A stretch of 64,000 nucleotides of DNA from an uncultured Acidimicrobiaceae bacterium (GCA_963729695.1 CAVSOT010000007.1:425332-489331), one strand, 5' to 3'; positions 3,354-39,517 are shown, counted from the stretch's first letter. Numbers and translations: made by a program. The notes: generated by a model not told the origin, from the letters alone.

Positions 3354-3395
3354 CGCCGATCGAGATGCCGTCGGGCGGGTATCGCGCTGAGTACC

Positions 3396-3923
3396 TTGCT
3401 GGACCCGACGGCTGAGCTCGCCCCCGCGAGCAGGGCGCTCGTCTCCCGCCCTGCTGGCCTCGACGGGTTGACCATCGGTCTGCTCGACATCTCCAAGCCC
3501 AGAGGTGACGTGTTCCTCGACCAGCTCGCGCAGCGACTGCACGGGCGGGGATGGAGCGTCCTGCGCTATGCAAAACCAACCTTCACCAAGCCGGCGCCCA
3601 TCGATCTTCGCCAGGAGATCGCCGTCCAGTGCGACGTGGTGATCGAGGCCCTCGCCGATTGAGGCAGCTGTACGTCGTGCAGTGTGCACGACATCGCCGA
3701 CCTGGACTCGCGAGGCGTGCCAGGCGTGTTTGTGGCGTCCCGCGAGTTCATCCCTGCCGCCGCGGCCCAGTCCGAAGGTCTCGGTTTTCCCGCCGCCGCG
3801 GTCTTTGTCGACCACCCGATACAGGATCGCACCGACGAGGAGGTCAGAGCCCTGGCTGACGGCGCCCTGCCTGCGCTTCTCGCCGCGCTCACCAACCCTG
3901 CGCCCACCCGCAGCGCGGACTGA
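3396..3923 (+). CDS. UGSC-motif selenoprotein (TGA 3660-3662 read as selenocysteine); function unknown
   Basis: ORF-track fragments 3396..3662 and 3684..3923 share one frame and are split only by TGA. Read-through gives ...VVIEALAD-U-GSCTSCSVHDIADL.... A paralog with the same TGA context lies at 31761, a hairpin lies 11 nt downstream, and the sel genes are in the window. The start is uncertain (TTG 3396, or ancestral ATG 3350 in another frame). Confidence 0.8.
3674..3692 (+). promoter_or_regulatory. SECIS-like RNA hairpin downstream of Sec codon
   Basis: Perfect inverted repeat GTCGTGCA-GTG-TGCACGAC starting 11 nt after TGA 3660-3662. The apical region contains GU. Confidence 0.55.
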
Positions 3924-5861: not shown

Positions 5862-5955
5862 GGATCGTCCCTGATGGCCGAGCACGCTACTGCAAGCCCG
5901 AAGGGGTCCCACCGTCCGGGCGGAGGGAGTGGCGGGTGGGCCGCTGCTCGTGATG

Positions 5956-6000
5956 TTCGGGGTGCGCCGGCGTTTTCGGGGTGCGCCGGCGTTTTTCGGA
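5956..6000. repeat. ~19-nt direct repeat, about 2.3 copies (TTCGGGGTGCGCCGGCGTT), each containing the palindrome CGCCGGCG
   Basis: Read directly. Lies in the divergent intergenic region between the LLM gene (start 5861, minus) and the CoxL-like gene (start 6146, plus). Confidence 0.6.
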
Positions 6001-6145
6001 CGCGCCTGGCGACAAATGGACATCTGTGCAGCCTCAGGCTGTACAGACGTCCAAAGAATGAGACCTCGCCGCTGGAGGACCACCGGCTCGGCCGCCACCT
6101 ACCCGGCGGTCCCCAACAGTGGTTCCCCAACAACGGGGCCATAGG

Positions 6146-10321: not shown

Positions 10322-12058
10322 GTGGCTGATCTCGTGATTCGGAACGGGTTGGTGATCGACGGTACCGGGGCGCCGGGGGTCGTGGCCGACGTGGCCGTCG
10401 AGGGGGGCCGGGTGGTGGAAGTAGGTCAGGTGGCCGAGCGGGGGACCCGGACGATCGATGCCTCCGACCTGGTGGTTGCCCCTGGCTTCGTCGACATCCA
10501 CACGCACTACGACGCCCAGGCCTTTTGGGATTCGACGCTGAGCCCGTCACCCCTGCACGGTGTGACGACGGCCGTGAGCGGGAATTGCGGGTTCACTATT
10601 GCGCCGTTGTCGGGCAACGCCGACGACAGCGACTACCTCCTGCGCATGCTGGCCCGGGTCGAGGGGATGCCACTGGCGTCGTTGCAGCAGGGGGTCCCGT
10701 GGGATTGGCAGTCGACTGCGGAGTATCTCGACCGCCTCGACGAGCGCGGGTTGGGTCCGAATGTCGGTTTCCTGGTGGGCCATTCGACTCTCCGGCGCTT
10801 GGTGATGCGAGACGATGCGGTCAGCCGCCCCAGTACCGAGGCGGAGCTGGCGGCGATGCAGCAGCTCTTGCGGGATGGTCTGCGGGCCGGCGGCTTCGGC
10901 TTTTCCTCTACGTGGGCCCGTTCGCACAACGACCACGAAGGCCATCCCGTCCCCTCCCGCCATGCCACGGCCGAGGAGCTGGTGGCGCTCTCCGCCGTAG
11001 TGGGCGAGTTTCCCGGGACGACCCTGGAGTTCATTCCTGGGGTTCCGCCATTCAGCGACGATCTGTTCGCTTTGATGGCGGCTATGAGCCGGGCCGCCAA
11101 CCGGACGATCAACTGGAACGTTCTGGCGGTCTTTCCCGACAATCAGGACCTGGTGCAACGCCAGCTCGCCGGCGCGGATTACGCGGCGGAGATGGGAGGC
11201 CGCGTCGTGGGCCTGACGCTAGCCGACGGCATCAGAAACCGGCTCAACTTCAAGAGCGGTTTCGTGCTCGATGTCCTGCCCGGGTGGGACCGGCTGATGG
11301 CGTTACCCGACGACGAGAAGCTCGCATTCATGGCGGACCCCTCTTCGCGTGCCGAGATGGACCGGCTGGCCCAGAGCGTGCAGGGCATGGCTACCATCAT
11401 CCCCCGCTGGAATCAGTATGTGATCCTGGAGGCCTTTTCCCCTGAGACCAAGCCGTTCCAGGGCATGACGGTCGAAGAGATCGCGGCGCGCACCAATCGC
11501 AGCCCGTGGGACGCGTTGGCGGACATCGTCGTGCAGGACCGGCTGCGGACCGTCATTCTCAACGAGGACCGCGGCCAGACCAGGGAGACGTGGCGCCTCC
11601 GGGCCGAGCTGTGGCGCGACCCTCGCGTGGTCATCGGGGCCTCCGACGCCGGAGCGCACCTGGACATGATCGACACATTTTCCTATCCGACCGCCATGAT
11701 CGCCAAGGCGGTTCGGGAGCACGGCCTCCTACCGTTGGAGGAGGCGGTCCACTATCTCACGGGAGTACCCGCCGGCTTGTACGGCATCCGGGATCGTGGT
11801 GTGGTCCGACCCGGAGCCTGGGCCGACCTGGTGATCTTCGATCCGCAGACGATCGGCCCGGACCTCGTCTCGACCCGGTTCGACCTCCCTGGTGGCGCTC
11901 CCCGGGTGTACGGAGGTGCCATCGGGATGGAGCATGTCATGGTGGCCGGCCGTGACATCGTCACGAGCGGGGAGTTCACTGACGACCGGCCCGGGCGAGT
12001 GCTTCGTGCCGGCCGGGACAGCACCACCGTGACCGCAGCCCCCGTCGAGCACCCCTAG
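10322..12058 (+). CDS. N-acyl-D-amino-acid deacylase family amidohydrolase (divergent paralog)
   Basis: MADLVIRNGLVIDGTGAPGVVADVAV...APGFVDIHTHYD. Divergently transcribed from 8430..10133. Confidence 0.85.
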   Translation: MADLVIRNGLVIDGTGAPGVVADVAVEGGRVVEVGQVAERGTRTIDASDLVVAPGFVDIHTHYDAQAFWDSTLSPSPLHGVTTAVSGNCGFTIAPLSGNADDSDYLLRMLARVEGMPLASLQQGVPWDWQSTAEYLDRLDERGLGPNVGFLVGHSTLRRLVMRDDAVSRPSTEAELAAMQQLLRDGLRAGGFGFSSTWARSHNDHEGHPVPSRHATAEELVALSAVVGEFPGTTLEFIPGVPPFSDDLFALMAAMSRAANRTINWNVLAVFPDNQDLVQRQLAGADYAAEMGGRVVGLTLADGIRNRLNFKSGFVLDVLPGWDRLMALPDDEKLAFMADPSSRAEMDRLAQSVQGMATIIPRWNQYVILEAFSPETKPFQGMTVEEIAARTNRSPWDALADIVVQDRLRTVILNEDRGQTRETWRLRAELWRDPRVVIGASDAGAHLDMIDTFSYPTAMIAKAVREHGLLPLEEAVHYLTGVPAGLYGIRDRGVVRPGAWADLVIFDPQTIGPDLVSTRFDLPGGAPRVYGGAIGMEHVMVAGRDIVTSGEFTDDRPGRVLRAGRDSTTVTAAPVEHP

Positions 12059-13014: not shown

Positions 13015-14187
13015 TCAGCGGGTGAGCAGCGCCGCGCCGCCCTCGAGGACTCCGGCACTGGTAACCACTGCGACCTCGGCACCAGCCACCTGACGTCCCC
13101 GGGCCTCGCCCCGCAGCTGGCGAACGGCCTCGGCGATGTGTCCGAAGCCGGCGTGGAGCCGGCCGCCCGAGAGCTGGCCGCCCCACGTATTGAGGGGCAG
13201 CTCCCCTCCGACAGAGATACGTCCCCCTCCCTCGATGAAACTCCCGGCCTCGCCGGTGCCGCAGAATCCGAGCGCTTCGAGCCAGCAGACGACGGAGATG
13301 CTAAAGCCGTCGTACAGCTGGGCGACGTCGACGTCGGTGGGTTTGAGATCAGTGCGACTCCACAGCGCGGCGGCCGTCCGGCGACCCAGGGCTTCGATGC
13401 GGTCCACCTGATACCAGGACGTTGCTCCTTCGCGGACGCCGGCCATGGACTCGATCCGAATGGGAGCCCGGAGATCACCCGACGTCTCGGCTGCCGAGAC
13501 GACGATCGCGGTTGAAGCGTCTACCGGCACGTCGCAGTCAAACAGGCACAACGGCGTCGAGATCATCCGCGACTGCAAATAGTCCTCGACGGTCAAGGGA
13601 TCGCGGTAGACCGCGTCCGGGTTTGCCGAGGCGTGAGCCCGTTGCGTGACGGAGATCCAGGCCAATTGGTCTCGTCTGAGCTGGTAGTCGTGCATGTACC
13701 GCGCCGCGATCGGCGCCAGCTGGCAGGCTACGGACAATCCGCCGATGGGCAGCACCCAGGCGAGCGCTCCAGCCGCGGTGGGGGAGGTGGATCCGTACGC
13801 CGGGCGTCCACCCGCTCTGCGGCCCGCGCTGCCCTCCTTGACGGTTCGATAGAGGACCACGTGGCGCGCCTGGCCGGTAGCCACGGCCATGACCGCGCCC
13901 GACAGAGGACCGGCCGAGCCGACGCCGCCGCTCCACGACGTGGTGAGGCGAAGCGCCTCGTGAATCTCCGCCAGGTCTGGGTTGGACGCCCCGGGCACGC
14001 CACCGCCTCCCGAAGGAAACGCCGAGATGCCGTCGATGTCGTCGAGGACGAGGCCGGCATCAGCGACGGCGGCGCAGATGGCATCGAGGGTGAGCTGAAA
14101 TCCCGACCGTTCGATCTGCCGACCGATGGCGGAGTGCCCGATGCCTGAGATGACGGTGCGGCGCTCGCACTGTTCGTTTCGGATCAG
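13015..14187 (-). CDS. thiolase-fold (SCP-x / lipid-transfer-type) protein
   Basis: C-terminal thiolase-like region, with the conserved N-terminus RRTVISGIGHSAIGRQ in frame upstream of the ORF-track start (GTG 13998). There is no ATG/GTG/TTG between in-frame TAG 14197-14199 and 13998. A GGGGAGG Shine-Dalgarno lies just upstream of in-frame CTG 14187 / ATC 14184. Confidence 0.7.
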   Translation of the reverse strand: MIRNEQCERRTVISGIGHSAIGRQIERSGFQLTLDAICAAVADAGLVLDDIDGISAFPSGGGGVPGASNPDLAEIHEALRLTTSWSGGVGSAGPLSGAVMAVATGQARHVVLYRTVKEGSAGRRAGGRPAYGSTSPTAAGALAWVLPIGGLSVACQLAPIAARYMHDYQLRRDQLAWISVTQRAHASANPDAVYRDPLTVEDYLQSRMISTPLCLFDCDVPVDASTAIVVSAAETSGDLRAPIRIESMAGVREGATSWYQVDRIEALGRRTAAALWSRTDLKPTDVDVAQLYDGFSISVVCWLEALGFCGTGEAGSFIEGGGRISVGGELPLNTWGGQLSGGRLHAGFGHIAEAVRQLRGEARGRQVAGAEVAVVTSAGVLEGGAALLTR

Positions 14188-14224
14188 GCACCTCCCCTAC
14201 GGCACGCGCTGATCGATGACGGGG

Positions 14225-27155: not shown

Positions 27156-28397
27156 GTGATGACACAGTCCAGGTTTGTACGCCTCATAGAGCGGTTCGAT
27201 CCGTTCGATCCCGAGTTCGTACAGCACTTCAACCAGGTTTGCGGAGACCTCAGGGAGCAATGCCCGGTTGCCCACAGTTCGGCGCACGGAGGGTTTTGGA
27301 CCTTCAGCCGGTTCGACGAGGTGCTGCACGGCTTTGCCGACAACGATGGCCTGTCGGCGGTTCCCACGGCGACGATTCCCCCCAATCCCAACGCGGTGCA
27401 CCTCCTGCCCCTTCAGGCGGACCCGGCCGAACACGGCGACCTCCGTCGATTCCTCAACCCGTACTTTCGGGCGGGGGCGGTTGGCAAATTCGAAGCGGGC
27501 ATCCGATCCGAGGTCACCGCGCTCATCGACGATTTCATCGAAGCCGGGCGCTGCGAGTTCATCGCCCAATTCGGTCGGCGCCTACCCGGCGCCGTCATCT
27601 TCCGCCAGCTGCTCGGGCTTCCCGAAAGCGAAGTGGACGAGGCCTACCACTGGGTGATGGCCATCATGCACGGCCACAACACCGACGAGTTCGGTCATAT
27701 CTTCGACAGTTTCTCGACTCTGGCCGCAGGCATGCTCGAACGCCGGCGGAACGAGGACCGCCGCGACGACGCCGTCGATGCCCTCCTGCACGGAACGATA
27801 GGGGACCGGCTCCTCACCGACGACGAGATCATCCGGACGCTCATGCTCCTCATCGCGGGTGGGCTGGACACGACCGCGCATGCCCTCGGCAACTTTGTCA
27901 TCAGGTTGGCGCACGACCCGGAGCTGCGGGGGCGCCTCGAAGCCGAGCCGCAGCGCATACCGGGAGCCATCGAGGAGCTGCTGCGCATCGACCCGCCGGC
28001 CGGTGGGCTCGTGCGCACGGCGGTGCGCGACCTGGTGATCGACGGCGCGGAAGTACGGGAGGGCGACCGGATCCTGCTCCTGGTCGCGGCGGCGAATCGA
28101 GACCCCCGCGAGTTCGAGGCGCCCGAGCGCATCGATCTCGACCGCACCCGCAATCGGCATCTGTCTTGGGGATACGGCACCCACTTCTGTCTCGGCGTGC
28201 ACCTGGCCCGCCTGGAACTACGGGTGGCGTTCGAGGAGATCCTCGACCGGCTCCACGACATTCAGGTGCTCGACCATCCCGTCCCCTACGACACGGGCTG
28301 TTCTAGGGGCCCCGTCGCCCTGCGCATCGGCTTCACGCCGGGACTGCGACGTGAGCCCCAGAGGTCAGCTGCGCACGCGTCCCCGAACGATGGCTGA
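27156..28397 (+). CDS. cytochrome P450
   Basis: Heme loop WGYGTHFCLGVHLARLE and EELLR. Confidence 0.9.
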   Translation: MMTQSRFVRLIERFDPFDPEFVQHFNQVCGDLREQCPVAHSSAHGGFWTFSRFDEVLHGFADNDGLSAVPTATIPPNPNAVHLLPLQADPAEHGDLRRFLNPYFRAGAVGKFEAGIRSEVTALIDDFIEAGRCEFIAQFGRRLPGAVIFRQLLGLPESEVDEAYHWVMAIMHGHNTDEFGHIFDSFSTLAAGMLERRRNEDRRDDAVDALLHGTIGDRLLTDDEIIRTLMLLIAGGLDTTAHALGNFVIRLAHDPELRGRLEAEPQRIPGAIEELLRIDPPAGGLVRTAVRDLVIDGAEVREGDRILLLVAAANRDPREFEAPERIDLDRTRNRHLSWGYGTHFCLGVHLARLELRVAFEEILDRLHDIQVLDHPVPYDTGCSRGPVALRIGFTPGLRREPQRSAAHASPNDG

Positions 28398-29286
28398 ATC
28401 CGCGCTTGGTATGGTGCTCGACTGGTTCGGCTGCGCGACCTTCCGGCTGCGGGCGCAGGGCGTGACGATCTTTCTGGACGCCTACATCGATCGGGTCGCG
28501 GGGGCTCCGGGCCCCGCCCTCACTGCCGATGACGTCGACGAGTGCGATTGGATGGTGATCGGCCACTCGCACTTCGATCACCTTTACGGTGCGGATCGCA
28601 TTGCCAGCTCGACCGGGTGTCGGATCATCGGCAGCTACGAGACGATCCGTGTCCTCGAATCGTGCGGGGTTCCGATCGACCAGATGATCTGCGTCTCCGG
28701 TGGGGAGCGCATCGAGCTGGCCGATGGGCTCCGGGTTTCGGTGTACCCGAGCCAGCATTCCTGCGTGTGGACCCACCGCCAGATGCCGCGGGTCGACGAG
28801 GTGTGCATCGGCGACCTCGGCGTCACGTGGCAGGAGCAGGCGGCGCGACTCGCCGACCTGGGCGCCTACTACGCCGGGCTCGGGGGCGCCCTGTTCGACC
28901 ATCTTCGGTCGACGCATCAAGGCGCAAGGGGCGACGGTGGCTCGTTGGTGTATCTCTTCGAGACGCCCGAGGGTTCGCTTCTCTACCAGGACACTTCGGG
29001 ATGCTGGACGGGGGTGCTCCGTGACCTCCGACCGGATGTCGCCATTCTGGCCGCGGCTGGTCGGGGCAACCTCGATGGGGATCCCATCCAGGGGAGCCTG
29101 GCCCAGTTCGTCGCTCGGGAGGTGGCTCTGCTGAGGCCCCGACAGGTCGTGCTCAGTCACCATGATGACTGGCTCCCCGGGTTTTCCGTCGAGACTGACG
29201 TCGGGCCTATCCGATCTGAGCTTTCCCGCCTGGCCCCGAGCGCCGAGCTGCGGGAAATCGGGTATCTCGATGGGACGGTGCTGTAG
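28390..29286 (+). CDS. MBL-fold metallo-hydrolase
   Basis: HxHxDH (VIGHSHFDHLYG). ATG 28390 (MAESALGMVLDWFG...) overlaps the P450 stop by 8 nt. Confidence 0.75.
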   Translation: MAESALGMVLDWFGCATFRLRAQGVTIFLDAYIDRVAGAPGPALTADDVDECDWMVIGHSHFDHLYGADRIASSTGCRIIGSYETIRVLESCGVPIDQMICVSGGERIELADGLRVSVYPSQHSCVWTHRQMPRVDEVCIGDLGVTWQEQAARLADLGAYYAGLGGALFDHLRSTHQGARGDGGSLVYLFETPEGSLLYQDTSGCWTGVLRDLRPDVAILAAAGRGNLDGDPIQGSLAQFVAREVALLRPRQVVLSHHDDWLPGFSVETDVGPIRSELSRLAPSAELREIGYLDGTVL

Positions 29287-29298
29287 CCGGCCCGGTCG

Positions 29299-31425
29299 GT
29301 GCACTCATCGTGGTTGACACCCGGCGGACCGTGTGAGACGGTGATGTTTGCTTTGAGCCGAGCAGGTAGTTCGTTGAGGACAACCGCTGTCGTCGGAGCC
29401 GGGGCCAGCGGCCTGTCGGCCGCCTGGCACGTGGCCCGTCGGGGTCATCACGTCATCCTGATCGACCATCAGGGGGCCGGGGGACAACTGTTGAACGTTG
29501 GCGTCATCGAGTCCGTTCCTGGTCTCGGGTCGTCGGTACGGGGGCCCGACCTGGTCGCTCGAATGGTGCAGCAGATGGATGAGCAGAAGATCGAGTGGCT
29601 GCACGAGCGGGCTGTCAACATCGGGCACCGGTCGAACCGGTTCCGGATCCTCACCGACGCGGGTTCCGAGGTCGTGGCCGACGCCGTCATCGTGGCAACC
29701 GGATCTTGGCACCGCCAACTCGGTGTTCCCGGCGAGGACGCCCTCGAGCACCGGGGCGTGTCCCACTGCGCCGTCTGTGACGGCCCGCTCTACCGGGATC
29801 GACCAGTAGCAGTGGTGGGTGGCGGCGACGCGGCCGCCGACGCCGCCGCCTACCTGGCCGGCATCTGCTCGCGGGTTCACCTCGTGCACCGAGCGGGTCG
29901 ACTCGAAGCGGTTGATGCCTTGTGTCGCCGGCTCTATGGGCTCCCCAACGTGGAGCATTGGCCCGACACGGAGGTGCGTCGCATCGGTGGGGACACAGCG
30001 GTCGAGGCGGTGGAGATCGAAGACGGCGCCGGGGGGAGGCGGAGCATCGAAGTAGCCGCTGTCTTCGTCGCCGTCGGGATGGATCCCGACGCCTCCTTGG
30101 TCGCCGGCCTCGCCCAGCTCGACCCCTCAGGATGCGTGGCGGTCGATGCCGGCCTGATGACAAACGTCCCGGGCCTGTTCGCCGTGGGAGCGGTCCGGGC
30201 GGGGACCTCCGGCCAGCTGGCGGGCTCCATCGGCGACGGTGTCGCCGCCGCCGCGGCCGCGGATGGGTGGCTTCGGTCCCAGCGCCCGCCGGCCGGTAGT
30301 CCAGGGTTGGCTCGTAGTCCAGGGTCGGCTCGTAGTCCAGGGTCGGCCCTTCGTCCGGGATGGGCCGGTGGTCCCGGATGGCCCGGCAACGCCACTCGCA
30401 CCCGTCGTCTCGACGATGGCTCGGACTACGTCGACTACGGCGACTTCTTCGACTCGATGGGCGAAGTCGGGGTCGGCGATGGATTGCCTCTTGTGCCGCC
30501 TACACCGGCGCGTTTCGACCGCTTCGCCACCGCGTTGGCGTGCGATCCCTACGAACTGCTGCCGGCTCTTCCGGACGGCCGCCGGCTGCGCTACGCCGAC
30601 CTCGTCATGTCCGCCATCCTGGCCGGCTGCCGCCCGGAGTACATGCCGGTGGTCGCGGCCGCAGCCGAGTCGCTGTTGACGGATCTCGCCGGCCGGCAAC
30701 CGCGACTGCCCGACTCCGTTGCGGTCGTCCTCGTCAACGGTCCCGTCCGGGAGACGATCGGCCTCAATTGCTCGGACGGCCTCTTCGGGCCGGGGTGGCG
30801 AGCCAATGCCACCATCGGGCGGGCCGTTCAGCTGTTCCTCCGTGGGCAGGTCGACGATCGCCGGCCGACCGGGTTCGGCGACGCCGGACAGATCGCGTTC
30901 TGCTTCGGAGAAGATGAACAAACGTCGCCCTGGACGCCACTGCACGTCCAGCGGGGATTAGATCCAGGCCAGAGCACGGCCACCGTTTTCGTGGCCAACG
31001 CCTACCGGCACATGCTGGACCGTCAGAACACTGATGCGGACGGGATCATCGAGTACCTGCGGCTGTTCCTTCGCGGCCGGGCCTCAGGAACCCGACTGTT
31101 CGGCGACGTCCCGCTAACCCTGATGGTCGTCATCGGTCGGGAGCTGCGGCGCCAGTTGGCCCCGCGCTATTCGAAGGCGGAGCTATCCGAACGGCTGTTC
31201 GACCTTCTGACCCTGGACGACGGGACGCCCTTTGGGCCAATCGACGTGCCCGATGCCGACCACGTTCTGATCGTCGGGGCGGGAGGCGTCGCCACCCCCG
31301 CACTATGGTGCTTTGTCGCGGCGGCGTCGCCGCCCGTTACCGTGCCGGTCCGCGATCCGGGACTCGCCTTCGGATCTGGGCCGCCGCCACGAGCTCGAGA
31401 GATGAGCCAAGGAGAAGCGAGATGA
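29299..31425 (+). CDS. fusion protein: thioredoxin-reductase-like flavoprotein (CAVC) + Pro/Gly-rich repeat linker + domain X
   Basis: VVGAGASGLSAAWHVARRG (FAD GxGxxG), GVSHCAVCDGPLY (TrxB-type redox disulfide), VVGGGDAAADAA (NADPH site) and GLFAVGAV. The C-terminal DGLPLVPPTPAR...LAGCRPEYMPVV...VNGPV...WRANATIGRA...FCFGEDEQ is domain X. Start may be ATG 29344. Confidence 0.85.
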   Translation: MHSSWLTPGGPCETVMFALSRAGSSLRTTAVVGAGASGLSAAWHVARRGHHVILIDHQGAGGQLLNVGVIESVPGLGSSVRGPDLVARMVQQMDEQKIEWLHERAVNIGHRSNRFRILTDAGSEVVADAVIVATGSWHRQLGVPGEDALEHRGVSHCAVCDGPLYRDRPVAVVGGGDAAADAAAYLAGICSRVHLVHRAGRLEAVDALCRRLYGLPNVEHWPDTEVRRIGGDTAVEAVEIEDGAGGRRSIEVAAVFVAVGMDPDASLVAGLAQLDPSGCVAVDAGLMTNVPGLFAVGAVRAGTSGQLAGSIGDGVAAAAAADGWLRSQRPPAGSPGLARSPGSARSPGSALRPGWAGGPGWPGNATRTRRLDDGSDYVDYGDFFDSMGEVGVGDGLPLVPPTPARFDRFATALACDPYELLPALPDGRRLRYADLVMSAILAGCRPEYMPVVAAAAESLLTDLAGRQPRLPDSVAVVLVNGPVRETIGLNCSDGLFGPGWRANATIGRAVQLFLRGQVDDRRPTGFGDAGQIAFCFGEDEQTSPWTPLHVQRGLDPGQSTATVFVANAYRHMLDRQNTDADGIIEYLRLFLRGRASGTRLFGDVPLTLMVVIGRELRRQLAPRYSKAELSERLFDLLTLDDGTPFGPIDVPDADHVLIVGAGGVATPALWCFVAAASPPVTVPVRDPGLAFGSGPPPRAREMSQGEAR
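30296..30385 (+). repeat. in-frame 18-nt (6-aa) tandem repeat, 5 diverging copies, forming the inter-domain linker
   Basis: GTAGTCCAGGGTTGGCTC / GTAGTCCAGGGTCGGCTC / GTAGTCCAGGGTCGGCCC / TTCGTCCGGGATGGGCCG / GTGGTCCCGGATGGCCCG, encoding GSPGLARSPGSARSPGSALRPGWAGGPGWPG. Confidence 0.7.
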
Positions 31426-32112
31426 ACCCTCTGGTGCGTCCGGTGAACGTTCGAAACGAGGTCGGAGTGGTGTGCGACCCGCTCGCTCCCTTGCCGGCCG
31501 GCGATGGCCGCGCCGAGCGGACCGTTGCCTCCCGGCCCTCGTCGCTCGACGGCAAGGTGCTCGCCGTGATCGACAACGGGATGGGCCAGCAAGCTCCAGG
31601 ACTGGGTTTCGGAGAGGTCTTGGTCCGGAAGCTGAAGGAGGTGGCCGACATTGCCGATGTCATCTACGTTCGCAAGGACGCGGTCAACGTCCCCCCTCGC
31701 CCAGAGGACTGGATGGAGATATGCCGTCGTGGCGACGTCGGTCTGGCCCTCTACGGCGCTTGAGGGAGTTGCAGCTCGCGCAGTTTCGCGCGACGCCATA
31801 GAGCTCGAGTGGGCTGGCATACCGGCAGTAGCGGTGGTGCACGAGGCGCTGGCCGGCTCGGCCGACGCCATGAGGTTGATGTCGGGGATCCCGCACTATC
31901 CGTTTCTCGAGGTCAACTTCCCGTTACCCCCGGTCGGCCCGTGGACCGTCGAGCAGGTTGAGGCTGTGTGCGACGAGCTGCTCCCCGGAGTGATCGAACA
32001 ATTGACCCACGACATCGCCGGGCCCGCGGCGCGTGACCAGCAGTCCGCCCCTGCGCTGGTCCCTGCCGGTGATGCCGTCGCAGAGGATCGGCCGAGGGCC
32101 CCGGCGCCGTGA
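31422..32112 (+). pseudogene. UGSC-motif (seleno)protein paralog; needs TGA 31761 recoding and a +1 frame correction near 31779 (pseudogene or assembly indel)
   Basis: ATG 31422 overlaps the upstream stop (ATGA). Frame 0 gives ...DVGLALYGA-TGA-GSCSS. The homologous continuation AVSRDAIELEWAGIPAVAVVHEAL...PFLEVNFP is in the +1 frame through TGA 32110-32112. The span is 3n+1 nt. Confidence 0.6.
31776..31793 (+). promoter_or_regulatory. SECIS-like hairpin downstream of second in-frame TGA
   Basis: TCGCGC-AGTTTC-GCGCGA, starting 12 nt after TGA 31761-31763. The loop contains GU. Confidence 0.4.
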
Positions 32113-33189
32113 CAGCCGGCGGTCAGACCCGGACGTTCGCCGATTATGACGATTTCTTCGATGACTTTGTCGAGCGCGGCGCTACGGATGGGCTTCCCAT
32201 CATCCCCCCGACCCCAGCCCGAGTGGACGCTGCTCTGGCCGCGGCCGGGCTGGATGGACGCGAAGTGTTGGGGGAGATTCCCACCCGGGATGTCGTGGTG
32301 GACGCCCGGCGGGTCGCGATCAACGCAGTCATGGCGGGGTGCTTGCCCGAGTACATGCCTGTCGTGGCGGCCGCGGTGCGAGCGTGGACGCATCCGCTGG
32401 CCAATGGGCACGGCGTCACCGGGAGCCTCGCCGGGCCGACCAATCCCATCATCATCAATGGTCCCATCGCGACGGAGCTCGGGTTCAACGGTGGGGCGGG
32501 GTGCTTCGGGCCGGGCTGGCGAGCCAATGCCACGGTGGGACGAGCACTTCGTCTGATCGTCAGGAACGTCGCTCTGTCGATACCCGGCTTCGCCGATCGC
32601 GCCGCCTACTCCCAGCCTGGGCGCTTCACGTTCTGCTTCTGCGAAGACCAACAATCGACCGTCTGGAACCCACTCCACGTCGAGCGCGGCTACCGCCCCG
32701 AGGACAGCGTGGCAAGCGTGCATTCGAACACGGACATCTTCACCTATCGCAGCGAGGAGCCCGACCCGGAGGGCCTCCTCGACGGCCTCGTGACCCTCGC
32801 TCGGGCTCGTCCGGTCCAGAAGGAGGACTTCGTGGGCCAGTGGCGCAGCGTGGTCATCGGTAATTGGACCGGATCACCGCGACGTCCTGGAGCGCAACGG
32901 ATGGTCGAAGGCAGCTGTCCGCGAGTATTTGCATCCTCGGTTGACGATGCCGGACACGTTCGAGCCGGGCGCTCGGACCGTCTGGGGTAGCCAACCGACG
33001 GGAAGCCTGGGTGAGTACTCGTTCTATATCCCGAACGCCGACAACGTCCTCCTCGTTGCCGCCGGGGGGAGGTCGGCCTTCCAATCTGTCGTTTTGTACC
33101 CCCACGTGTCCAGCACCGTCTCCGCCGAGGTCACCTTCGACGGTTCGCGCGGCCGGTTGGTCCCCGACGACAGCATCGTGTGCGGTTGA
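32109..33189 (+). pseudogene. stand-alone domain-X paralog with +1 frame discontinuity at about 32862 (pseudogene or assembly indel)
   Basis: GTG 32109 overlaps the upstream stop (GTGA). Frame 0 carries DGLPIIPPTPAR...MAGCLPEYMPVV...INGPI...WRANATVGRA...FCFCEDQQ...WRSVVIG. The homologous C-terminus (IGPDHRDVLERNGWSKAAV...LLVAAGG) continues in the +1 frame to 33189. The span is 3n+1 nt. Confidence 0.6.
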
Positions 33190-33236: not shown

Positions 33237-33764
33237 TCAGGGCGTGGGAAGGTACCGGTCCCTGTACAACTGATGGATGCGAGCTGACTGACCGACCTCT
33301 TGAAACTGGATCAGGTTGCCGTCTGGGTCCTGCAGGAATCCCGGCGCCGGAGGTTCGACGCCGAGGGAACGGGCCTTGGCAAAGAAGGCGTCCAGGTTGC
33401 GGACATCGAACGCCAAGTGGGTGTATCCCAAGCGGTCGAGCTTCTCCGACGGCCGCCCCCCGAGCTCGTCGCCCGGGTGGCCGATGAGCGTCAGGCTGAT
33501 GCCGCCGACGCGCTCGAAGATCACCATGCGCCGTATGGCGTGGACGCTGTCGTAGATCGCCCCCTCTGACGCCGTGGCCAGCTCGACGACTTCACCATCC
33601 TGCACGGCAAACCCGCCGAAGGTGCTCTCGCCGTCGACCCGTACGTTGGTCAGCACCCGCAATCCCACGACGTCCTCGTAGAAGCGCGTGGCTGCCTCTA
33701 TGTCGCGCACCGTAATGGTGATGTGGTCGATGCCGACGAGGTCCGATTCCTCGCTCATGGCCAA
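33237..33764 (-). CDS. VOC (glyoxalase) family protein
   Basis: GIDHITITVRDIEAATRFYEDVVGL and HLAFDVRN motifs. RBS GAGGGAGGA. Confidence 0.75.
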   Translation of the reverse strand: MAMSEESDLVGIDHITITVRDIEAATRFYEDVVGLRVLTNVRVDGESTFGGFAVQDGEVVELATASEGAIYDSVHAIRRMVIFERVGGISLTLIGHPGDELGGRPSEKLDRLGYTHLAFDVRNLDAFFAKARSLGVEPPAPGFLQDPDGNLIQFQEVGQSARIHQLYRDRYLPTP

Positions 33765-33865: not shown

Positions 33866-34870
33866 TCAGTCGAGCGCGACCATGGGCGGTCCGGGCCCGA
33901 CCTCTCCAATCTCCCACCACCCGTTTCCGGCCAGGACCCCAGCGTCGTCGGGATGGACCGAGACGAGGAGTCCTCCCGAGGTTTGGGGGTCGATGGCCAG
34001 AGCCTCCAGGCTGGGTTCGGCCGCCGACGACAGATGGCCCTGCAAGTAGGCCCGGTTTCGGGCATCACCGCCCGTGCGCACCCCGGCCGTGGCGGCGCGC
34101 TTGGCCCCCGGATACAGAGGGAGGGCGGCCGAGTCGAACCGGATCGAGGCGCCTGACCTCTCGGCAATTTCCCAACCGTGACCAACCAGGCCGAACCCGG
34201 TCACGTCGGTGACTGCGTGCGCCGCCGGCCCGTAGTCTCGATCAGGAAGCTGCGCCAGTTGCTGCGCCGCCTTCCTGTTGAGCACTCGCATCTGCCCGAT
34301 CGTGGCCGTTTTCGAGCCTTCGTCGGTGCTGGCCAGCACGATGCCGGAGCCCAGCGGTTTGGAGAGGAGCAAGCGATCCCCCGCCAGGGCGCCGCCTTTG
34401 GTCCAGATCCGCTCGGGATCCACCAGCCCTTGGACAGCGAGGCCGAAGATCGGTTCGGCCGACCGGATCGTGTGGCCGCCGGCAATCGTCCCCCCGGCTT
34501 CGGCGACCACGGCGGCGGCCGCCTCCAGGATGGCTGCGATCGCATCTGGGGGGAATTCCTCGGGAAAGGCGGCAATGTTGAGAGCGGTGATCACCCGTCC
34601 TCCCATGGCGAATACGTCGCTGCAAGCGTTCGCGGCTGCGATGGCCCCGAAGTCGGCCGGATCGTCCACCAGGGGTGGGAAGAAGTCGGTGGTGGACACG
34701 ACCGCCAGTTCGGGCGATAGCCGGTACACAGCGGCGTCGTCGAAGGGGGCCAGACCGACGAGGAGATCAGCGTCCTCGGTCCCGGCGACCAGGTCCACCA
34801 GCCCGCTCAACGCGGCGCCGCCCCATTTGGCCGCGCACCCTCCACAGGATGTCCATTCGGTCAGTTTCAC
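33866..34870 (-). CDS. selD: selenide, water dikinase (selenophosphate synthetase), Cys-type
   Basis: LTEWTSCGGCAAKWGG N-terminal active-site loop followed by the AIR-synthase-like fold (DDAAVYRL..., DFFPPLVDDP, TDVTGFGLVGH). GTG 34870 overlaps the selA stop (GTGA). The longer ORF-track N-terminus overlaps selA and looks non-coding. Confidence 0.9.
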   Translation of the reverse strand: MKLTEWTSCGGCAAKWGGAALSGLVDLVAGTEDADLLVGLAPFDDAAVYRLSPELAVVSTTDFFPPLVDDPADFGAIAAANACSDVFAMGGRVITALNIAAFPEEFPPDAIAAILEAAAAVVAEAGGTIAGGHTIRSAEPIFGLAVQGLVDPERIWTKGGALAGDRLLLSKPLGSGIVLASTDEGSKTATIGQMRVLNRKAAQQLAQLPDRDYGPAAHAVTDVTGFGLVGHGWEIAERSGASIRFDSAALPLYPGAKRAATAGVRTGGDARNRAYLQGHLSSAAEPSLEALAIDPQTSGGLLVSVHPDDAGVLAGNGWWEIGEVGPGPPMVALD

Positions 34871-36180
34871 GGACCAGATCCTTCCGTTGGTGAGGGGGCC
34901 GCGTGGGCGGGCCCTGACAACGCCGCTCGTATCGCCTCGCCGAGGTCGCCGTCCTGGTGCTCGAAAACGGCGCGCATCTCGCAGAGGGTGCGGCCCTTTT
35001 CGACCCTGGGGATCACGGGAGGTTGCCAGCTGCGCAGGGGCGCGGAGATATCGCCTTCGATGGCCACGGCAACCGAGGGGATGAGCACGCCGGGGAGCGT
35101 TCCACCCCCCATGGGAGCCGCCGTATCGACCACCTCGCCGACAGCCAGGCGCTGTGCCCTTTGGCGGAGATCCGGCAACGGAGTCGTGGCCAGCTTCCAC
35201 AGCGGCACGGTGGACCCGGCGTCACGCCGCAGGTAGGCCAAAGCGACGTTCTGAAGTGCTTCCAGGACCAGGCCGCCCGGGCGGAGCACCCGGGCCAGCG
35301 GGTGCCGGCGGCACCTGTCCACCAGGGTGCTCGAACCGGCGATGATGCCGGCCTGCGGGCCGCCGAGCAGCTTGTCGCCGCTGAAGGTGATCAGGTCGGC
35401 TCCAGCCGACAGCGTCTGGCGGCACGCCGGTTCTCCCCCCAGCCAGTCTGGTGGACCGTCGGAGAGCCACGGGCAGGCCGCGTCCAGCAGCCCGGACCCG
35501 AGGTCGACCACCACCGGTGCTCCCAGCCCTTTGAGCTCCCGGACGGCGACCGACTCGGTGAAGCCACTGACGCGAAAGTTGGAGGTGTGGACCTTGAGCA
35601 CCAACGAGGTGAGAGGACCGATGGCCGCCTCGTAATCTCCTCGCTTGGTCCGGTTGGTGGTCCCAATCTCGACCAGCTGCGCACCCGAGGTCGCCAGGAT
35701 CTCCGGTATCCGGAATCCTCCGCCGATCTCGACGAGCTCTCCCCGGCTCACGATCACCTGGCCACCGCCACCGGCGAGCGCGGTGAGGGCGAGGAGGACG
35801 GCGGCCGCTCCGTTGTTGACCACCAGGGCCTCCTCGGCGCCGCACGCTTTGGCGATCAGGGTGGCGGCGTGCGCGGAGCGGTCGCCCCTGCTGCCGGCAT
35901 TGACGTCGAATTCGAGATTTGAGTACCCCGCCACGCGCTCGACGGGCAGCGGCGCTCTGCCGAGATTGGTGTGCAACAGCACCCCGGTTGCGTTGACGAG
36001 AGGCCGGAGGAGGCGCCGCCGGGTGTCGGCGGCTACGGCGGCCGCCCGTTGCAGGATGGTGTCCCCGTTGCCGTCCTCGCGGAGGACCGTCCTGGCCACG
36101 TCGACCAGAATCGGATGAGGCAGACCTGACGGCGCCAGCTGGCGGGCCAACGAGTCCACCGATGGTGGGCGGTGCGCCAC
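34867..36180 (-). CDS. selA: L-seryl-tRNA(Sec) selenium transferase
   Basis: VNATGVLLHTNLGRAPL, and the PLP-lysine motif FSGDKLLGGPQAG. Confidence 0.9.
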   Translation of the reverse strand: MAHRPPSVDSLARQLAPSGLPHPILVDVARTVLREDGNGDTILQRAAAVAADTRRRLLRPLVNATGVLLHTNLGRAPLPVERVAGYSNLEFDVNAGSRGDRSAHAATLIAKACGAEEALVVNNGAAAVLLALTALAGGGGQVIVSRGELVEIGGGFRIPEILATSGAQLVEIGTTNRTKRGDYEAAIGPLTSLVLKVHTSNFRVSGFTESVAVRELKGLGAPVVVDLGSGLLDAACPWLSDGPPDWLGGEPACRQTLSAGADLITFSGDKLLGGPQAGIIAGSSTLVDRCRRHPLARVLRPGGLVLEALQNVALAYLRRDAGSTVPLWKLATTPLPDLRQRAQRLAVGEVVDTAAPMGGGTLPGVLIPSVAVAIEGDISAPLRSWQPPVIPRVEKGRTLCEMRAVFEHQDGDLGEAIRAALSGPAHAAPSPTEGSGP

Positions 36181-36258
36181 GCCCGTAGGCTAGCCCTGAT
36201 GAGCATCGCCGACAGAGCCTGCATCCGCGTCGTAGTGGGGCGGGGCGGGCTGCTCCGG

Positions 36259-36351
36259 CGGAGGTGGACGGGAATCGAACCCGCCGCTGTGGGTGCGCCA
36301 CAGCCAACCGCTTTGAAGGCGGCGGAGTCCACCAGGTACTCGGACACCTCC
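36259..36351 (-). tRNA. selC: tRNA-Sec (anticodon UCA)
   Basis: The reverse complement reads GGAGGTGTCCGAGTACCTGGTGGACTCCGCCGCCTTCAAAGCGGTTGGCTGTGGCGCACCCACAGCGGCGGGTTCGATTCCCGTCCACCTCCG. It has a 7-bp acceptor (GGAGGTG/CACCTCC), anticodon loop CTTCAAA, a long variable arm (GCTGTGG-CGCAC-CCACAGC) and a 6-bp T-stem with loop TTCGATT, giving 13 stacked acceptor+T base pairs as in tRNA-Sec. It lies between selA and selB. Confidence 0.85.
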
Positions 36352-36452: not shown

Positions 36453-38183
36453 ATGGCGGTAATCGCGACAGCCGGTCACGTCGATCACGGGAAGTCGACA
36501 TTGGTATTGGCCTTGACCGGCGTCGATCCCGATCGTCTCCCTGAAGAGCAAACGAGAGGCATGACGATCGATCTGGGGTTCGCCCACACCACGCTGAAAT
36601 CGGGTCGACAGGTTTCTTTTATCGACGTTCCCGGACACGGGCGATTCGTGAAGAACATGTTGGCCGGTGTGACAGGAGTGGACGGCGTCCTTTTCGTCGT
36701 CGCCGCCACGGAAGGGTGGAAAGCCCAGTCGGAGGAGCATCTGGCCATATTGGAACTGACCGGCGCCCCGGCCGGGGTGGTGGCGTTCACCAAGGTTGCC
36801 GGAGTTCCACGAGCCCAGCTCGAGGCCGTGGTGGCGGACTGCCGCCGCTTTCTGTCTGGTTCTTTCCTCGCTGATGCGGAGATCGTTTTCGTCGATGTGC
36901 CGCACAACGTCGGACTGCCAGAGCTGCAGGATGCCCTCGACAGATTGGTCGGTAAGGTCGCTGCGCCAGTGGACTGCCGGCGGCCCAGACTGTGGATCGA
37001 CCGTTCCTTTTCCGTTCGGGGGACTGGGACCGTGGTGACGGGGACACTCAACGATGGGCCGCTCGCGGTAGGGGACATCGTCGCCGTGCAGCCGGGGCGT
37101 CGCCCCGTGCGGATCCGGGGCCTCCAGAGCAACGGTCGCCCGCTCTCGGACGCGTCGCCGGGCTGTCGGCTGGCGGTCAACCTGGCGGATACGGCGGTGA
37201 CCGAGGTGCGTCGCGGTCAGGCCGTGGTGCGACCCGACGAGTGGCATCTGACGCGGACGTTCGACGCCTCCCTCCAGGTGCTGCGGTCGGTCGCCCACGA
37301 GATTTCCCAGAAGGGCGCCTTCACGGTCCACATCGGCACGTCTGCGGTTCCGGTCCGGATCCGCGTGATCGGCGAGGAAACCCACCTGGGAGCTGGCGAG
37401 GAAGGATTCGTTCGGGTGTGGATGCAAAGGGGCTCCACCCTTCCGTTGGTACCCGGTGACCGGTACATCCTTCGGGAAGCCGGCCGAGCCGAAACGGTCG
37501 GAGGTGGCGAGGTCCTCGATGTCGATCCGTTGCTGGGCGCCAAACGGGCGATGCCTTCGAAATCGGCAGAGCGGGTGGTCAGCGAGCGCGGCTGGGTGGA
37601 CGTGGACGAGCTGCAACGGCTGACCGGGCAGACGCTGGCGCCCAACGCCGGCCGGTGGGTCGTGGACCCCGCCGTGCTGGCTGCCCAGCGGGAAGACCTG
37701 AAGGCCAGGTGTCGGGCGGCCGGTCGGAGCGGTTTGGACACGGCCACCCTGGATGACCTGCAGCGTGCCATTCTCGACTTGGGCCTCGACGGTATCCGCG
37801 TGGCGCATGGACGAGCGGTTGACGAGTCCTCCTCGGAGGAGCTCAGCACGGATGAAACCCGGGTGCTCCGCATTCTCGAGTCGAGTCCCTGGGACCCCCC
37901 GGATCTGCCGCTCGGAGACAGAGGGGCCTTGCGGCGGCTGCAACGCCTGGGACTCGTCGTGGAGTCCGAGAGCATCTGGTTTGCCACCTCAGCGGTGGAA
38001 AAGGCCATGGCGGTGATCGTCGGGCTCGTCCGGGATCACCAGGAGGGATTCACCGTTGCCCAATTTCGCAGTGCGCTCGGCACGAGTCGCAAATTTGCCC
38101 TGCCGCTCCTGCGTTATGCAGATACCGCAGGCCTCACCAAACGCGAGGGTGATTTCCGGAAGCTGAGGCATACCGAAAGTTGA
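36453..38183 (+). CDS. selB: selenocysteine-specific translation elongation factor
   Basis: G-domain AGHVDHGKSTL, DVPGH and a C-terminal winged-helix extension. 576 aa. Divergent from tRNA-Sec/selA. Confidence 0.9.
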   Translation: MAVIATAGHVDHGKSTLVLALTGVDPDRLPEEQTRGMTIDLGFAHTTLKSGRQVSFIDVPGHGRFVKNMLAGVTGVDGVLFVVAATEGWKAQSEEHLAILELTGAPAGVVAFTKVAGVPRAQLEAVVADCRRFLSGSFLADAEIVFVDVPHNVGLPELQDALDRLVGKVAAPVDCRRPRLWIDRSFSVRGTGTVVTGTLNDGPLAVGDIVAVQPGRRPVRIRGLQSNGRPLSDASPGCRLAVNLADTAVTEVRRGQAVVRPDEWHLTRTFDASLQVLRSVAHEISQKGAFTVHIGTSAVPVRIRVIGEETHLGAGEEGFVRVWMQRGSTLPLVPGDRYILREAGRAETVGGGEVLDVDPLLGAKRAMPSKSAERVVSERGWVDVDELQRLTGQTLAPNAGRWVVDPAVLAAQREDLKARCRAAGRSGLDTATLDDLQRAILDLGLDGIRVAHGRAVDESSSEELSTDETRVLRILESSPWDPPDLPLGDRGALRRLQRLGLVVESESIWFATSAVEKAMAVIVGLVRDHQEGFTVAQFRSALGTSRKFALPLLRYADTAGLTKREGDFRKLRHTES

Positions 38184-38339: not shown

Positions 38340-38903
38340 ATGCAAAACCTTGACCTGTCGCGAGCCGGAAGGGATTCGAGCGTGAACTGGCTGGGACGTG
38401 AGGCCGATGAGGCCACGGAGCTCGAGCGGGTGTTGGGTCTTCTCCCGGACGCTCACGAAGCGGTGAGGGAGTTCTATTCCATCTTTTGGGTGGACGAGCT
38501 GGTCGATCCGGTCCTCCTCGAGTTGATCCGCCTCAGGGTGGCGATGTTGCACGGGGTCCAATCGGAGCTCCTTGTCCGCTATGACGTCGCCAGGGAGCGG
38601 GGCCTGACCGAGGAAAAGGTTGCCGTTCTGTCGTCGTGGCCGACGTCGCCGCTCTTTACCGAGCTCGAGCGCCGGGTGCTGGGCCTGACCGAGCAATTCG
38701 TGATGGACCCCCATGGCGTCACCGACGACGACGTGTTGCCGATCAAGGAGGCGCTGACATCGGCCGGGTTGGTTGCGCTCGTCAATGCCATGGCCCTGAT
38801 CGACCACTTGGACCGCGTTCGCGTGGCCTTTGAAATTCCGCCCGCCGACGGAGACCGGGTGCTGGTCGTGGCCGGGCCCGGCCCCACGTCGCCTTTGTAC
38901 TGA
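38340..38903 (+). CDS. carboxymuconolactone decarboxylase (AhpD-like) family protein, Cys-less
   Basis: AhpD-like helical pattern (LIRLRVAMLHGVQSELLV, where CxxC normally sits). The protein contains no cysteine. Confidence 0.7.
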   Translation: MQNLDLSRAGRDSSVNWLGREADEATELERVLGLLPDAHEAVREFYSIFWVDELVDPVLLELIRLRVAMLHGVQSELLVRYDVARERGLTEEKVAVLSSWPTSPLFTELERRVLGLTEQFVMDPHGVTDDDVLPIKEALTSAGLVALVNAMALIDHLDRVRVAFEIPPADGDRVLVVAGPGPTSPLY

Positions 38904-38926: not shown

Positions 38927-39517
38927 ATGACCGTTAGCTCTGATCCCGTAGCGACGAAAGAGCCCCGCAGGTACCGGTTGAGTCATACCGGGGAGTTGTT
39001 CCCGCTGGGTTTCAAGCCCGCCTCGTCCCCCCGCATCGACGCAGACGTCGAGAGCAACCCCTTGCCGACATGGGACGGTCAGCCCGGCTTGGCCAAAGCG
39101 TTCATGAAGCACGACGAGGCCGTGTTCTGCCGGGATGGGAGCGGCCTGATTCCCATGGACGTCAAGGAGCCCGTCCGTCTCCGCGTGGCCCGAGTCGGGG
39201 GCTGCAAGATCTGCAGCAACACTCGAAACGCGGTGGCGCGCGATCAGGGCGTCAGCGAAGAGATGCTCGACCAGGTCACGGATCACTACGAGGAGTCGGG
39301 GCTTACCGATTACCAGAAGGTGGCGCTTCGTTACGCCGATGCGATCCTGTTGTCGACGCCCCCGTCGGACGAGTTGAAGCGCGAGCTGCTGCAACACTTC
39401 ACGGTCGAGCAGATCGTCGAGCTCACTCTCTTTGTGAGCCAGTGCCGGGTGTTCGCTGCCGTCACGATCGTGGAAGGAATCCAGCCTGACGAGATGCCGG
39501 AGAAGTGGGTCCACTGA
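38927..39517 (+). CDS. carboxymuconolactone decarboxylase (AhpD-like) family protein with CxxC
   Basis: LRVARVGGCKICSNTRN (CxxC at the AhpD core position). Confidence 0.75.
   Translation: MTVSSDPVATKEPRRYRLSHTGELFPLGFKPASSPRIDADVESNPLPTWDGQPGLAKAFMKHDEAVFCRDGSGLIPMDVKEPVRLRVARVGGCKICSNTRNAVARDQGVSEEMLDQVTDHYEESGLTDYQKVALRYADAILLSTPPSDELKRELLQHFTVEQIVELTLFVSQCRVFAAVTIVEGIQPDEMPEKWVH

Follow-up and report, generated by a model that had tools for sequence, protein, structure and literature searches.

Gene Organization of Module B

The DNA analyzed here is a stretch of 64,000 nucleotides from an uncultured Acidimicrobiaceae bacterium (GCA_963729695.1 CAVSOT010000007.1:425332-489331), referred to below as the window. 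This study concerns the selenoprotein family UGSC and its partner, a protein domain that we call X, which are encoded together in a three-gene group named Module B. The open reading frame (ORF) table and the raw sequence showed these three genes to be consecutive on the plus strand of the window at 29299-33189, with the following features (Sec, selenocysteine; SECIS, Sec insertion sequence; repaired, after removal of an extra base).

29299-31425, plus strand: gene 1, TrxR-like flavoprotein fused to domain X; 708 codons, intact
Parts of gene 1, plus strand: TrxR-like domain at about aa 29-325 with a CAVC motif, Pro/Gly-rich linker, and domain X at about 30415-31359 (TIGR01292, Pyr_redox_2, and X profile)
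31422-32112, plus strand: gene 2, UGSC-B, UGSC-family selenoprotein gene; matches PF24696 after repair, frameshifted by a one-base insertion
31761-31763, plus strand: Sec codon of the U-G-S-C motif, an in-frame UGA (TGA GGG AGT TGC at 31761-31772)
31774-31796, plus strand: SECIS-type hairpin of UGSC-B, from folding; starts 14 nt after the U of the UGA, with the extra C at 31787 in its loop
32109-33189, plus strand: gene 3, stand-alone domain-X protein (X3); 359 aa after repair, with an extra G at about 32859-32860 that shifts the frame

The stop codon of gene 1 overlaps the ATG start of UGSC-B by 4 nt (ATGA at 31422-31425), and the stop codon of UGSC-B overlaps the GTG start of the stand-alone X gene by 4 nt (GTGA at 32109-32112). 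The final plus-strand stop of the module lies at 33189. A preliminary description of this DNA had reported both overlaps, which were confirmed and recur in the relatives L001, L083, L084, and L086; it had also read the genes as a translationally coupled operon, a proposal that is supported by the conservation of the three-gene architecture and tight junctions in at least five independent contigs. Its identification of the middle gene as a Sec-containing UGSC gene held as well, with the UGA at 31761-31763 reading U-G-S-C and the SECIS hairpin present. However, its gene coordinates span, without mention, two frameshifts, one in UGSC-B and one in the stand-alone X gene.

Gene 1 matched TIGR01292 with 264.2 bits over positions 3-299 of 300, which is below the equivalog cut-off of 343.45, and Pyr_redox_2 with 138 bits; Pyr_redox and Pyr_redox_3 also matched. 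The sequence CAVCDG is found in the translation, and the full-length FAD/NAD(P)H architecture is present. Because the score is below the equivalog cut-off, the N-terminal domain is, judged by its sequence, best called TrxR-like rather than TrxB. The linker at 30270-30420 is rich in Pro and Gly and contains the short tandem units SPGLAR, SPGSAR, and SPGSAL. These repeats contribute to the length of gene 1, which has 708 aa compared with 665 aa in its orthologue on the syntenic metagenome contig L001 (43 codons longer), and a longer ORF start may also add to the excess.

The arrangement TrxR::X, UGSC (with TGA), and X recurs in L001, L083, L084, L086, and the contig of P0122. Wherever DNA of these recurring modules was available, the first junction was a 4-nt overlap and the second was tight, and the identity of gene 1 to its orthologues was 45-70%. 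A metagenome scan with gene 1 alone yielded no relative.

UGSC-B and UGSC-A Belong to a Sec-Containing Gene Family

The window contains a second UGSC gene, UGSC-A, in a two-gene module (Module A) of different architecture.

2001-3353, plus strand: Module A gene 1, Trx-like (CPTC) domain fused to X; intact, X at 2418-3350
3350-3923, plus strand: Module A gene 2, UGSC-A; UGA at 3660-3662, SECIS hairpin, NF041046 151 bits, frameshift at about 3388

Repaired UGSC-B matched Pfam PF24696 with 111.4 bits (cut-off 25) over positions 3-171 of 172, on both sides of the shift. Against NCBIfam NF041046 (cut-off 125), UGSC-A passed with 151 bits, and UGSC-B (68-71 bits) and its L001 orthologue (69 bits) remained below the threshold. 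Because the Module B type scores 69-71 bits against a cut-off of 125, it is classed, on sequence grounds, as a divergent subfamily.

The codon at the motif position was TGA in 67 of 77 scored UGSC genes and TGC or TGT (Cys) in five. For the hairpin survey, 72 UGSC genes were extracted from related loci, 71 of them with enough downstream sequence. In most of the 72 genes, a hairpin of 6-8 bp, with a small loop containing G-U, lies a constant 14 nt downstream of the UGA. The two sides of the stem covary (UCGUGCA/UGCACGA, UCGCGCA/UGCGCGA, GCCCGCA/UGCGGGA, and UCGUGGA/UCCACGA). The hairpin of UGSC-A is clean (UCGUGCA-GUG-UGCACGA), and the Module B gene is the sole copy among those extracted with an extra base in the loop. 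Besides the two UGSC genes, no in-frame TGA with coding signal on both sides was found in the window.

The structural model of UGSC (predicted local distance difference test score [pLDDT], 92.8) is a five-stranded flavodoxin-like alpha/beta domain in which the U/C-G-S-C motif is placed at the N-terminal end of the helix that follows strand 3. The nearest structures were flavodoxins, lumazine synthases, and B12-binding domains, not thioredoxins. When PDB chains were searched with UGSC, by profile and by sequence, noise alone was returned, and a Pfam scan of 13 UGSC proteins at E = 10 revealed no second family, GRDB (PF07355) included. In the protein databases, entries P0241 and P0245 read DWGSC, the Sec UGA apparently having been translated as Trp under another genetic code, and most other Sec-form UGSC entries consist of two gene calls split at the UGA.

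Domain X Is a Large Family with Conserved Residues

Domain X comprises about 330 aa and has no Pfam or NCBIfam match. It was defined by an alignment of 60 sequences (A4) with the motif set DGLP..PPT, A.NA..AGC.PEY, G.G.RAN.T.GRA, and C...E. The three X domains of the window (30415-31359, repaired 32124-33144, and 2418-3350) matched the X profile with 320-480 bits. Two of them, including that of gene 1, are part of the alignment and keep every invariant column. The family amounts to 6,467 clusters (50% identity) at E <= 1e-3 and 4,383 at E <= 1e-10, and its members are annotated as "hypothetical protein" in the source records. Among 306 X domains, Asp27, Gly28, Pro30, Asn140, Arg145, and Glu179 were conserved at about 100%, Cys78 at 98%, Cys176 at 94%, and Cys132 at 56%. 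In the X model (pLDDT, 90.7), Cys78 is located between two helices, at a helix N-terminus. A Pfam scan of 60 X proteins at E = 1 detected no second family, and profile and sequence searches of X against PDB chains gave noise only.

X and UGSC Are Paired and Fused Across Phyla

Loci of X were collected from one genome per species and annotated with profiles built for this analysis. The resulting 80 loci span Chloroflexota, Actinomycetota, Methylomirabilota/Rokubacteria, Binatia, several proteobacterial classes, Poribacteria, and others. In 65 of them, a UGSC gene lay no more than 1 kb from X on the same strand, with a median gap of 91 nt; X preceded UGSC in 55 pairs, and 19 pairs had the reverse order. 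Both modules of the window likewise contain X with an adjacent UGSC partner. A search for a conserved third neighbor in 81 loci (the 80 genome loci plus L001, with the window also in the set) returned ubiquitous families only, such as SDR in 18 and LLM oxidoreductases in 16. Two LLM (F420/flavin-dependent luciferase-like) genes also lie near Module A, at 4890-6098 on the minus strand and 24-851 on the plus strand; the family is common, and its recurrence may be due to chance.

The two families also occur in one chain. Among the top 150 cluster representatives, 34 were single-chain proteins of UGSC and X, in both orders. The UGSC::X chains, of which P0426 and P0509 are examples, include full-length Cys forms (GDCGSC::X) and Sec forms called from just after the UGA, and in the X::UGSC type, the gene call stops at "GD" just before the UGA. 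X is further joined to thiol-reductase domains of several kinds: it is fused N-terminally to TrxR in 12 clusters (P0121-P0132), to a CPTC Trx-like domain in the window (2001-3353), in 13 of the 80 genome loci, and in P0182, to Thioredoxin_2 in P0196, and to AhpC-TSA/Redoxin/TlpA-like domains in P0176, P0181, P0190, P0207, P0214, P0218, P0229, and P0237. The genetic coupling of X and UGSC looks obligate, and Module B elaborates, in one lineage, on a widespread two-gene X-UGSC cassette.

X is also combined with itself. X::X tandems accounted for eight of the top 150 cluster representatives, and such tandem proteins have about 710 aa (P0362, P0368, P0371, P0372, P0374, P0382, P0383, and P0459). 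Three X genes stand in a row in locus L007, and two to three X-UGSC pairs per locus are found in L017, L019, L035, L047, L050, L051, and L072. These arrays and tandems point to an expansion of paralogues and probably to a pseudo-dimeric architecture. The idea that X acts as an oligomer, advanced earlier from its extra stand-alone copy, is strengthened by these tandem fusions and by the arrays of several copies, and an oligomeric (pseudo-dimeric) X would fit both the X::X tandems and the two X copies in Module B.

One-Base Insertions in the UGSC and X Genes of the Window

The reading frames of the window were compared with three relatives: L001 (86% protein identity in the X gene), L002, a closer relative (94% nucleotide identity), and L087, a close relative of Module A (92.5% nucleotide identity). 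In UGSC-B, the frame changes 24 nt past the UGA, where the alignment with L001 showed an extra C at 31787. Frame 0 is nonsense beyond UGSC, and the conserved C-terminal half continues in frame +1; the L001 orthologue has a single unbroken frame. In the stand-alone X gene, the frame changes at about 32859, where an extra G was seen in the alignments with L002 and L001. The ORF finder accordingly splits UGSC-B into 31305-31763 and 31651-32112 and the stand-alone X gene into 32109-32990 and 32929-33189. The repaired X3 product shares 95% identity with P0001, an intact protein of 359 aa. In UGSC-A, a one-base insertion at about 3388 relative to L087 cuts the ancestral ATG off from the remaining gene; by the same comparison, this start is the ATG at 3350 that overlaps the upstream stop. 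An uninterrupted frame is therefore lacking in both UGSC genes, with the break at 31787 in UGSC-B and at codon 13 in UGSC-A. A TTG at about 3396 could act as a rescue start for UGSC-A. Programmed frameshifting was ruled out for the three insertions because close relatives read straight through.

After removal of the extra bases, the ratio of nonsynonymous to synonymous substitution rates (dN/dS) was 0.14 for X3 against L002, 0.09 for X3 against L001, and 0.19 for UGSC-B against L001. Intact neighboring genes gave 0.09-0.14 and gene 1 gave 0.20, from which the repaired genes are indistinguishable. Because the values of the repaired genes are as low as those of their neighbors, the one-base insertions are either very recent mutations or sequence errors.

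These data bear on the possibility that Module B is a decaying remnant, in which UGSC-B and the free X gene have recently become pseudogenes, with the sel locus kept for UGSC-A, for selenoproteins elsewhere, or for both. We consider this quite possible, at slightly below an even chance, and it is orthogonal to the question of how X and UGSC work. In its favor, each of the two genes carries a one-base insertion that is not found in L001 and L002, and all three coding indels relative to close relatives fall in UGSC or X genes, with none in about 7 kb of other genes compared; this enrichment is, however, weak ((5.8/12.9)^3, about 0.09). A codon-usage (coding-potential) scan of the 64 kb, which was used instead of a segmentation by GC content at third codon positions that proved too noisy, gave no further frameshift signature, but the scan is insensitive for the remaining genes and missed the shift in UGSC-A. 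Against decay, gene 1 is intact, insertions of a single base are also what assembly errors typically look like, and the dN/dS values of 0.14 (against L002) and 0.19 (against L001) are without relaxed selection, which means that any inactivation would be very recent.

The sel Locus Adjoins Module B Only Locally

Beyond Module B, the window carries a sel locus, which is separated from the module by a single convergent gene.

33237-33764, minus strand: VOC/glyoxalase-fold gene between Module B and selD; Pfam Glyoxalase 55 bits, kept in L001 only
33866-34870, minus strand: selD, Cys type with motif SCGGC; TIGR00476 322 bits, cut-off 125
34867-36180, minus strand: selA, longest ORF, the true start of which may be further downstream; TIGR00474 394 bits, cut-off 268
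36257-36351, minus strand: tRNA-Sec, anticodon UCA; ARAGORN, Rfam RF01852 64 bits, gathering score 47
36453-38183, plus strand: selB, divergent from tRNA-Sec; TIGR00475 283 bits, cut-off 242

The start of selD was set by analogy with the 4-nt selA/selD overlap in L001. The Sec-decoding set of selA, selB, selD, and tRNA-Sec is complete and intact, with all members above the curated thresholds. The order given earlier, a convergent VOC gene and then selD-selA-tRNA-Sec on the minus strand, was confirmed, with a gap of 47 nt between the last stop of Module B and the stop of the VOC gene.

From this adjacency, the preliminary description had proposed a self-contained selenium-utilisation island, and comparative genomics of the co-occurrence of the sel genes and the module was its suggested check. 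Under this reading, the island, possibly mobile, would be passed on or lost as a whole, with the sel genes and their sole client gene staying together. The module does adjoin the sel locus both in the window and in L001 (86% protein identity in the X gene), and the window has no in-frame TGA genes other than the two UGSC genes. In the Dehalococcoidia loci L038 (tRNA-Sec at 11709-11807) and L061 (12458-12555), a tRNA-Sec also lies within 1 kb 3' of UGSC; selA, selB, and selD were not detected in these 20-kb loci. However, among L001, L083, L084, L086, and the P0122 contig, sel genes stand beside the module in L001 only. No sel genes were seen in the available DNA of L083, L084, L086, and the shorter P0122 contig, and the modules of L083, L084, and L086 are flanked by acyl-CoA dehydrogenase, enoyl-CoA hydratase, acyl-CoA ligase, thiolase, and P450 genes. 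Within 10 kb, one of the 80 X loci had a selA fragment (9.5 kb away) and two had a tRNA-Sec. The GC content across the region (0.66-0.69) is like that of the flanks, no integrase or repeat boundary was seen at the region, and the second UGSC module, 26 kb away, is an equally plausible client of the sel genes.

Composition, mobility genes, and co-transfer of the module with the sel genes thus all spoke against a genomic island. Because the same module occurs in four further contigs without visible sel genes, the sel linkage is lineage-specific, a local accident of gene order with no sign of an island. As the adjacency is not kept beyond L001, the proposal is largely refuted in this respect, and we regard a selenium island as unlikely.

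Other Genes Near the Two Modules and the sel Locus

A metallo-beta-lactamase (MBL)-fold gene directly precedes Module B.

28351-29286, plus strand: MBL-fold gene directly 5' of Module B; Pfam Lactamase_B_2, possible accessory, not core

The same position is filled in L001 (1247-2143) but not in L083, L084, and L086. A 293-bit homologue lies directly 5' of the X gene in the Dehalococcoidia locus L032 (9063-9965), and a different MBL-fold (lactonase-like) gene lies 3' of Module A at 4005-4838. MBL-fold genes may be an occasional accessory of X systems.

Just past selB are two tandem AhpD/CMD-like genes (38340-38903 and 38927-39517) with weak matches of 37 and 54 bits to the NCBIfam model "YciW-related (seleno)protein" (cut-off 310). 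The second has a C-K-I-C motif, and both may be further thiol-redox genes near the sel locus. Elsewhere in the window, the thiolase/SCP-x-like gene at 13015-14190 (minus strand) has a conserved N-terminus, RTVISGIGHSAIGRQ, upstream of its first in-frame ATG, GTG, or TTG, which suggests a non-canonical or mutated start codon.

X and UGSC as Probable Subunits of One Redox Enzyme

On balance, X and UGSC are probably two halves of one thiol/selenol redox enzyme that receives NAD(P)H electrons through the fused reductase. This proposal starts from the observed pairing and fusion of the genes, the Sec codon and its SECIS hairpin, the folds, and the conserved residues, and from these we infer the direction of electron flow, a physical complex, and a catalytic role of X. 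In the proposed enzyme, X would supply the substrate site around Cys78, Asn140, Arg145, and Glu179 together with a docking surface, and UGSC would be the redox-active subunit, cycling between the selenol/thiol and selenenylsulfide states. Reducing power would come from whichever thiol-reductase domain is fused to X, be it TrxR-like, Trx-like (CPTC), or Prx/TlpA-like. In Module B, electrons may pass from NAD(P)H to FAD, to the CAVC motif, and to UGSC docked on the X domain of gene 1, after which UGSC would act either on the free X protein or together with it. In Module A, the CPTC Trx-like domain would replace the reductase and would itself be reduced by the cellular thioredoxin reductase. The neighboring sel genes supply Sec to both UGSC genes of the window but do not belong to the unit.

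Several observations weigh against a shared enzyme. Two of the three Module B genes are broken in the window, and the module may be non-functional in this organism. Because 15 of the 80 X loci have no adjacent UGSC gene, it seems that X can function by itself or with a partner whose gene lies elsewhere. X is not tied to any chemistry by experiment or solved structure, and a Foldseek search with the X model gave template modeling (TM) scores of at most 0.25 throughout, the best matches being class I fumarate hydratase and Toblerone-fold hydrolases; in view of the low TM-scores, these matches were not taken as homology. In addition, position 78 is Ala or Ser in a few X domains (e.g., P0220), which is awkward for Cys78 as a redox residue.

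Taken further, the proposal would make X and UGSC an unrecognized, widespread two-subunit selenoenzyme, composed of a catalytic X of new fold (Cys78/Asn140/Arg145/Glu179) and a flavodoxin-like Sec-x-x-Cys subunit, whose electron supply was recruited at least three times. We advance this fuller version tentatively, as a claim with somewhat less than half a chance of being right.

Two alternatives assign X and UGSC a different chemistry. In the first, X-UGSC is an analogue of the Stickland reductases (GrdB/GrdE and PrdB/PrdA), in which X self-cleaves between Gly77 and Cys78 to form a pyruvoyl group and UGSC acts as a U-x-x-C selenoprotein B that is re-reduced by the thioredoxin system of the operon. 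A thioredoxin-reductase function is encoded in the Module B operon, as it also is in grd operons. Ala-Gly-Cys is invariant in the 60-sequence X alignment, with Ser in one fusion, and both Cys and Ser can be pyruvoyl precursors; the U-x-x-C motif of UGSC is like that of PrdB in the Global Ocean Sampling (GOS) study's table. However, none of 13 UGSC sequences resembled the Pfam family GRDB, even at E = 10, and neither X nor UGSC had a PDB match. Cys78 is predicted by the model to lie between two helices at a helix N-terminus, not in a typical cleavage loop, and five of the 306 X domains have Ala at this position. We therefore consider a Stickland-type reductase very unlikely. The least probable alternative, in our view highly improbable, is that X is an iron-sulfur hydro-lyase-like protein, distantly related to class I fumarate hydratases, whose cluster or ligand cysteines are kept reduced by UGSC and the reductase: the top Foldseek matches were indeed class I fumarate hydratases (E 1.6e-4, probability 0.84), an archaeal two-subunit enzyme included, and stand-alone X proteins keep three Cys residues (78, 132, and 176), but the TM-scores were just 0.22-0.25 with a root-mean-square deviation of 17 A, and Cys132 occurs in only 56% of X domains, neither fused X domain of the window having it.

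Significance and Comparison with Known Systems

The UGSC-containing protein is a selenoprotein family that is abundant in aquatic metagenomes and has an unknown function (PMC2398784, PMC1976440, PMC13188914). The cultivable Hyphomonas neptunium is named as a carrier of UGSC in PMC1976440. In the GOS data the family figures prominently (255 Sec forms compared with 21 Cys forms), and it is enriched in non-marine samples. For nearly 20 years, UGSC has been listed among the most frequent selenoproteins of marine and freshwater metagenomes without a function or known partner. That it is almost always beside or fused to the X family gives a first handle on this orphan selenoprotein and makes it a testable system. 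The X partner is repeatedly fused to thioredoxin-type reductants, and in one lineage, three overlapping genes appear to encode a complete chain from NAD(P)H to the selenoprotein. It is now clear which genes should be expressed together, which residues mutated, and which electron donor tried, and the window offers two architecturally different X-UGSC examples. Should the two-subunit selenoenzyme prove real, it would represent a new class of NAD(P)H-linked reductase and give a role to an orphan selenoprotein family that is among the most abundant in aquatic metagenomes. With regard to annotation, a family model for X is warranted, and X-UGSC operons are split or truncated at the UGA by gene callers. 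In this window, the sel linkage is local and Module B is frameshifted as sequenced; the interest lies in the X-UGSC partnership.

The sel cluster has all four components of the bacterial system, and only its position beside a client selenoprotein operon, which is not kept beyond L001, is notable. Gene 2 of Module B resembles the UGSC family of the GOS and Olavius selenoproteome surveys in its U-G-S-C motif, in-frame UGA, downstream hairpin, and PF24696 match, but differs in scoring below the NF041046 cut-off and in being frameshifted. The flavodoxin-like fold of our model contrasts with the Trx-like fold suggested for UGSC in PMC2398784. The same 2008 GOS paper mentions UGSC fused to an "Unknown_1" domain in a few aquatic organisms (PMC2398784). 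This "UGSC/Unknown_1 fusion" (PMC2398784, Fig. S1A) probably corresponds to the single-chain UGSC::X and X::UGSC proteins that are common here, Unknown_1 probably being domain X. In our literature search, no report was found of a cross-phylum X-UGSC operon, of the TrxR, Trx, or Prx fusions, or of the three-gene module.

The alignment of gene 1 (aa 1-325) with TrxB (TIGR01292) extends over the whole model and keeps the C-x-x-C redox motif, but the score is below the equivalog cut-off (264 compared with 343). AhpF and NTRC each join a pyridine-nucleotide disulfide reductase to a domain that handles its protein substrate. Gene 1 would be similar by analogy in its fusion of reductase and partner, and differs in that X does not have a Trx fold and is C-terminal. 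The glycine, sarcosine, betaine, and D-proline reductases (GrdA/B/E and PrdA/B), whose operons encode TrxB/TrxA, likewise have a selenoprotein with a redox-active Sec-Cys pair encoded with a thioredoxin-type reductase and a larger partner; X and UGSC differ from them in showing no detected sequence or fold similarity and no pyruvoyl evidence. Although a member of none of these systems by the tests applied, X-UGSC may, by analogy, resemble the reductase-plus-partner chains of TrxB/Trx, AhpF/AhpC, and the thioredoxin-linked glycine and proline reductases.

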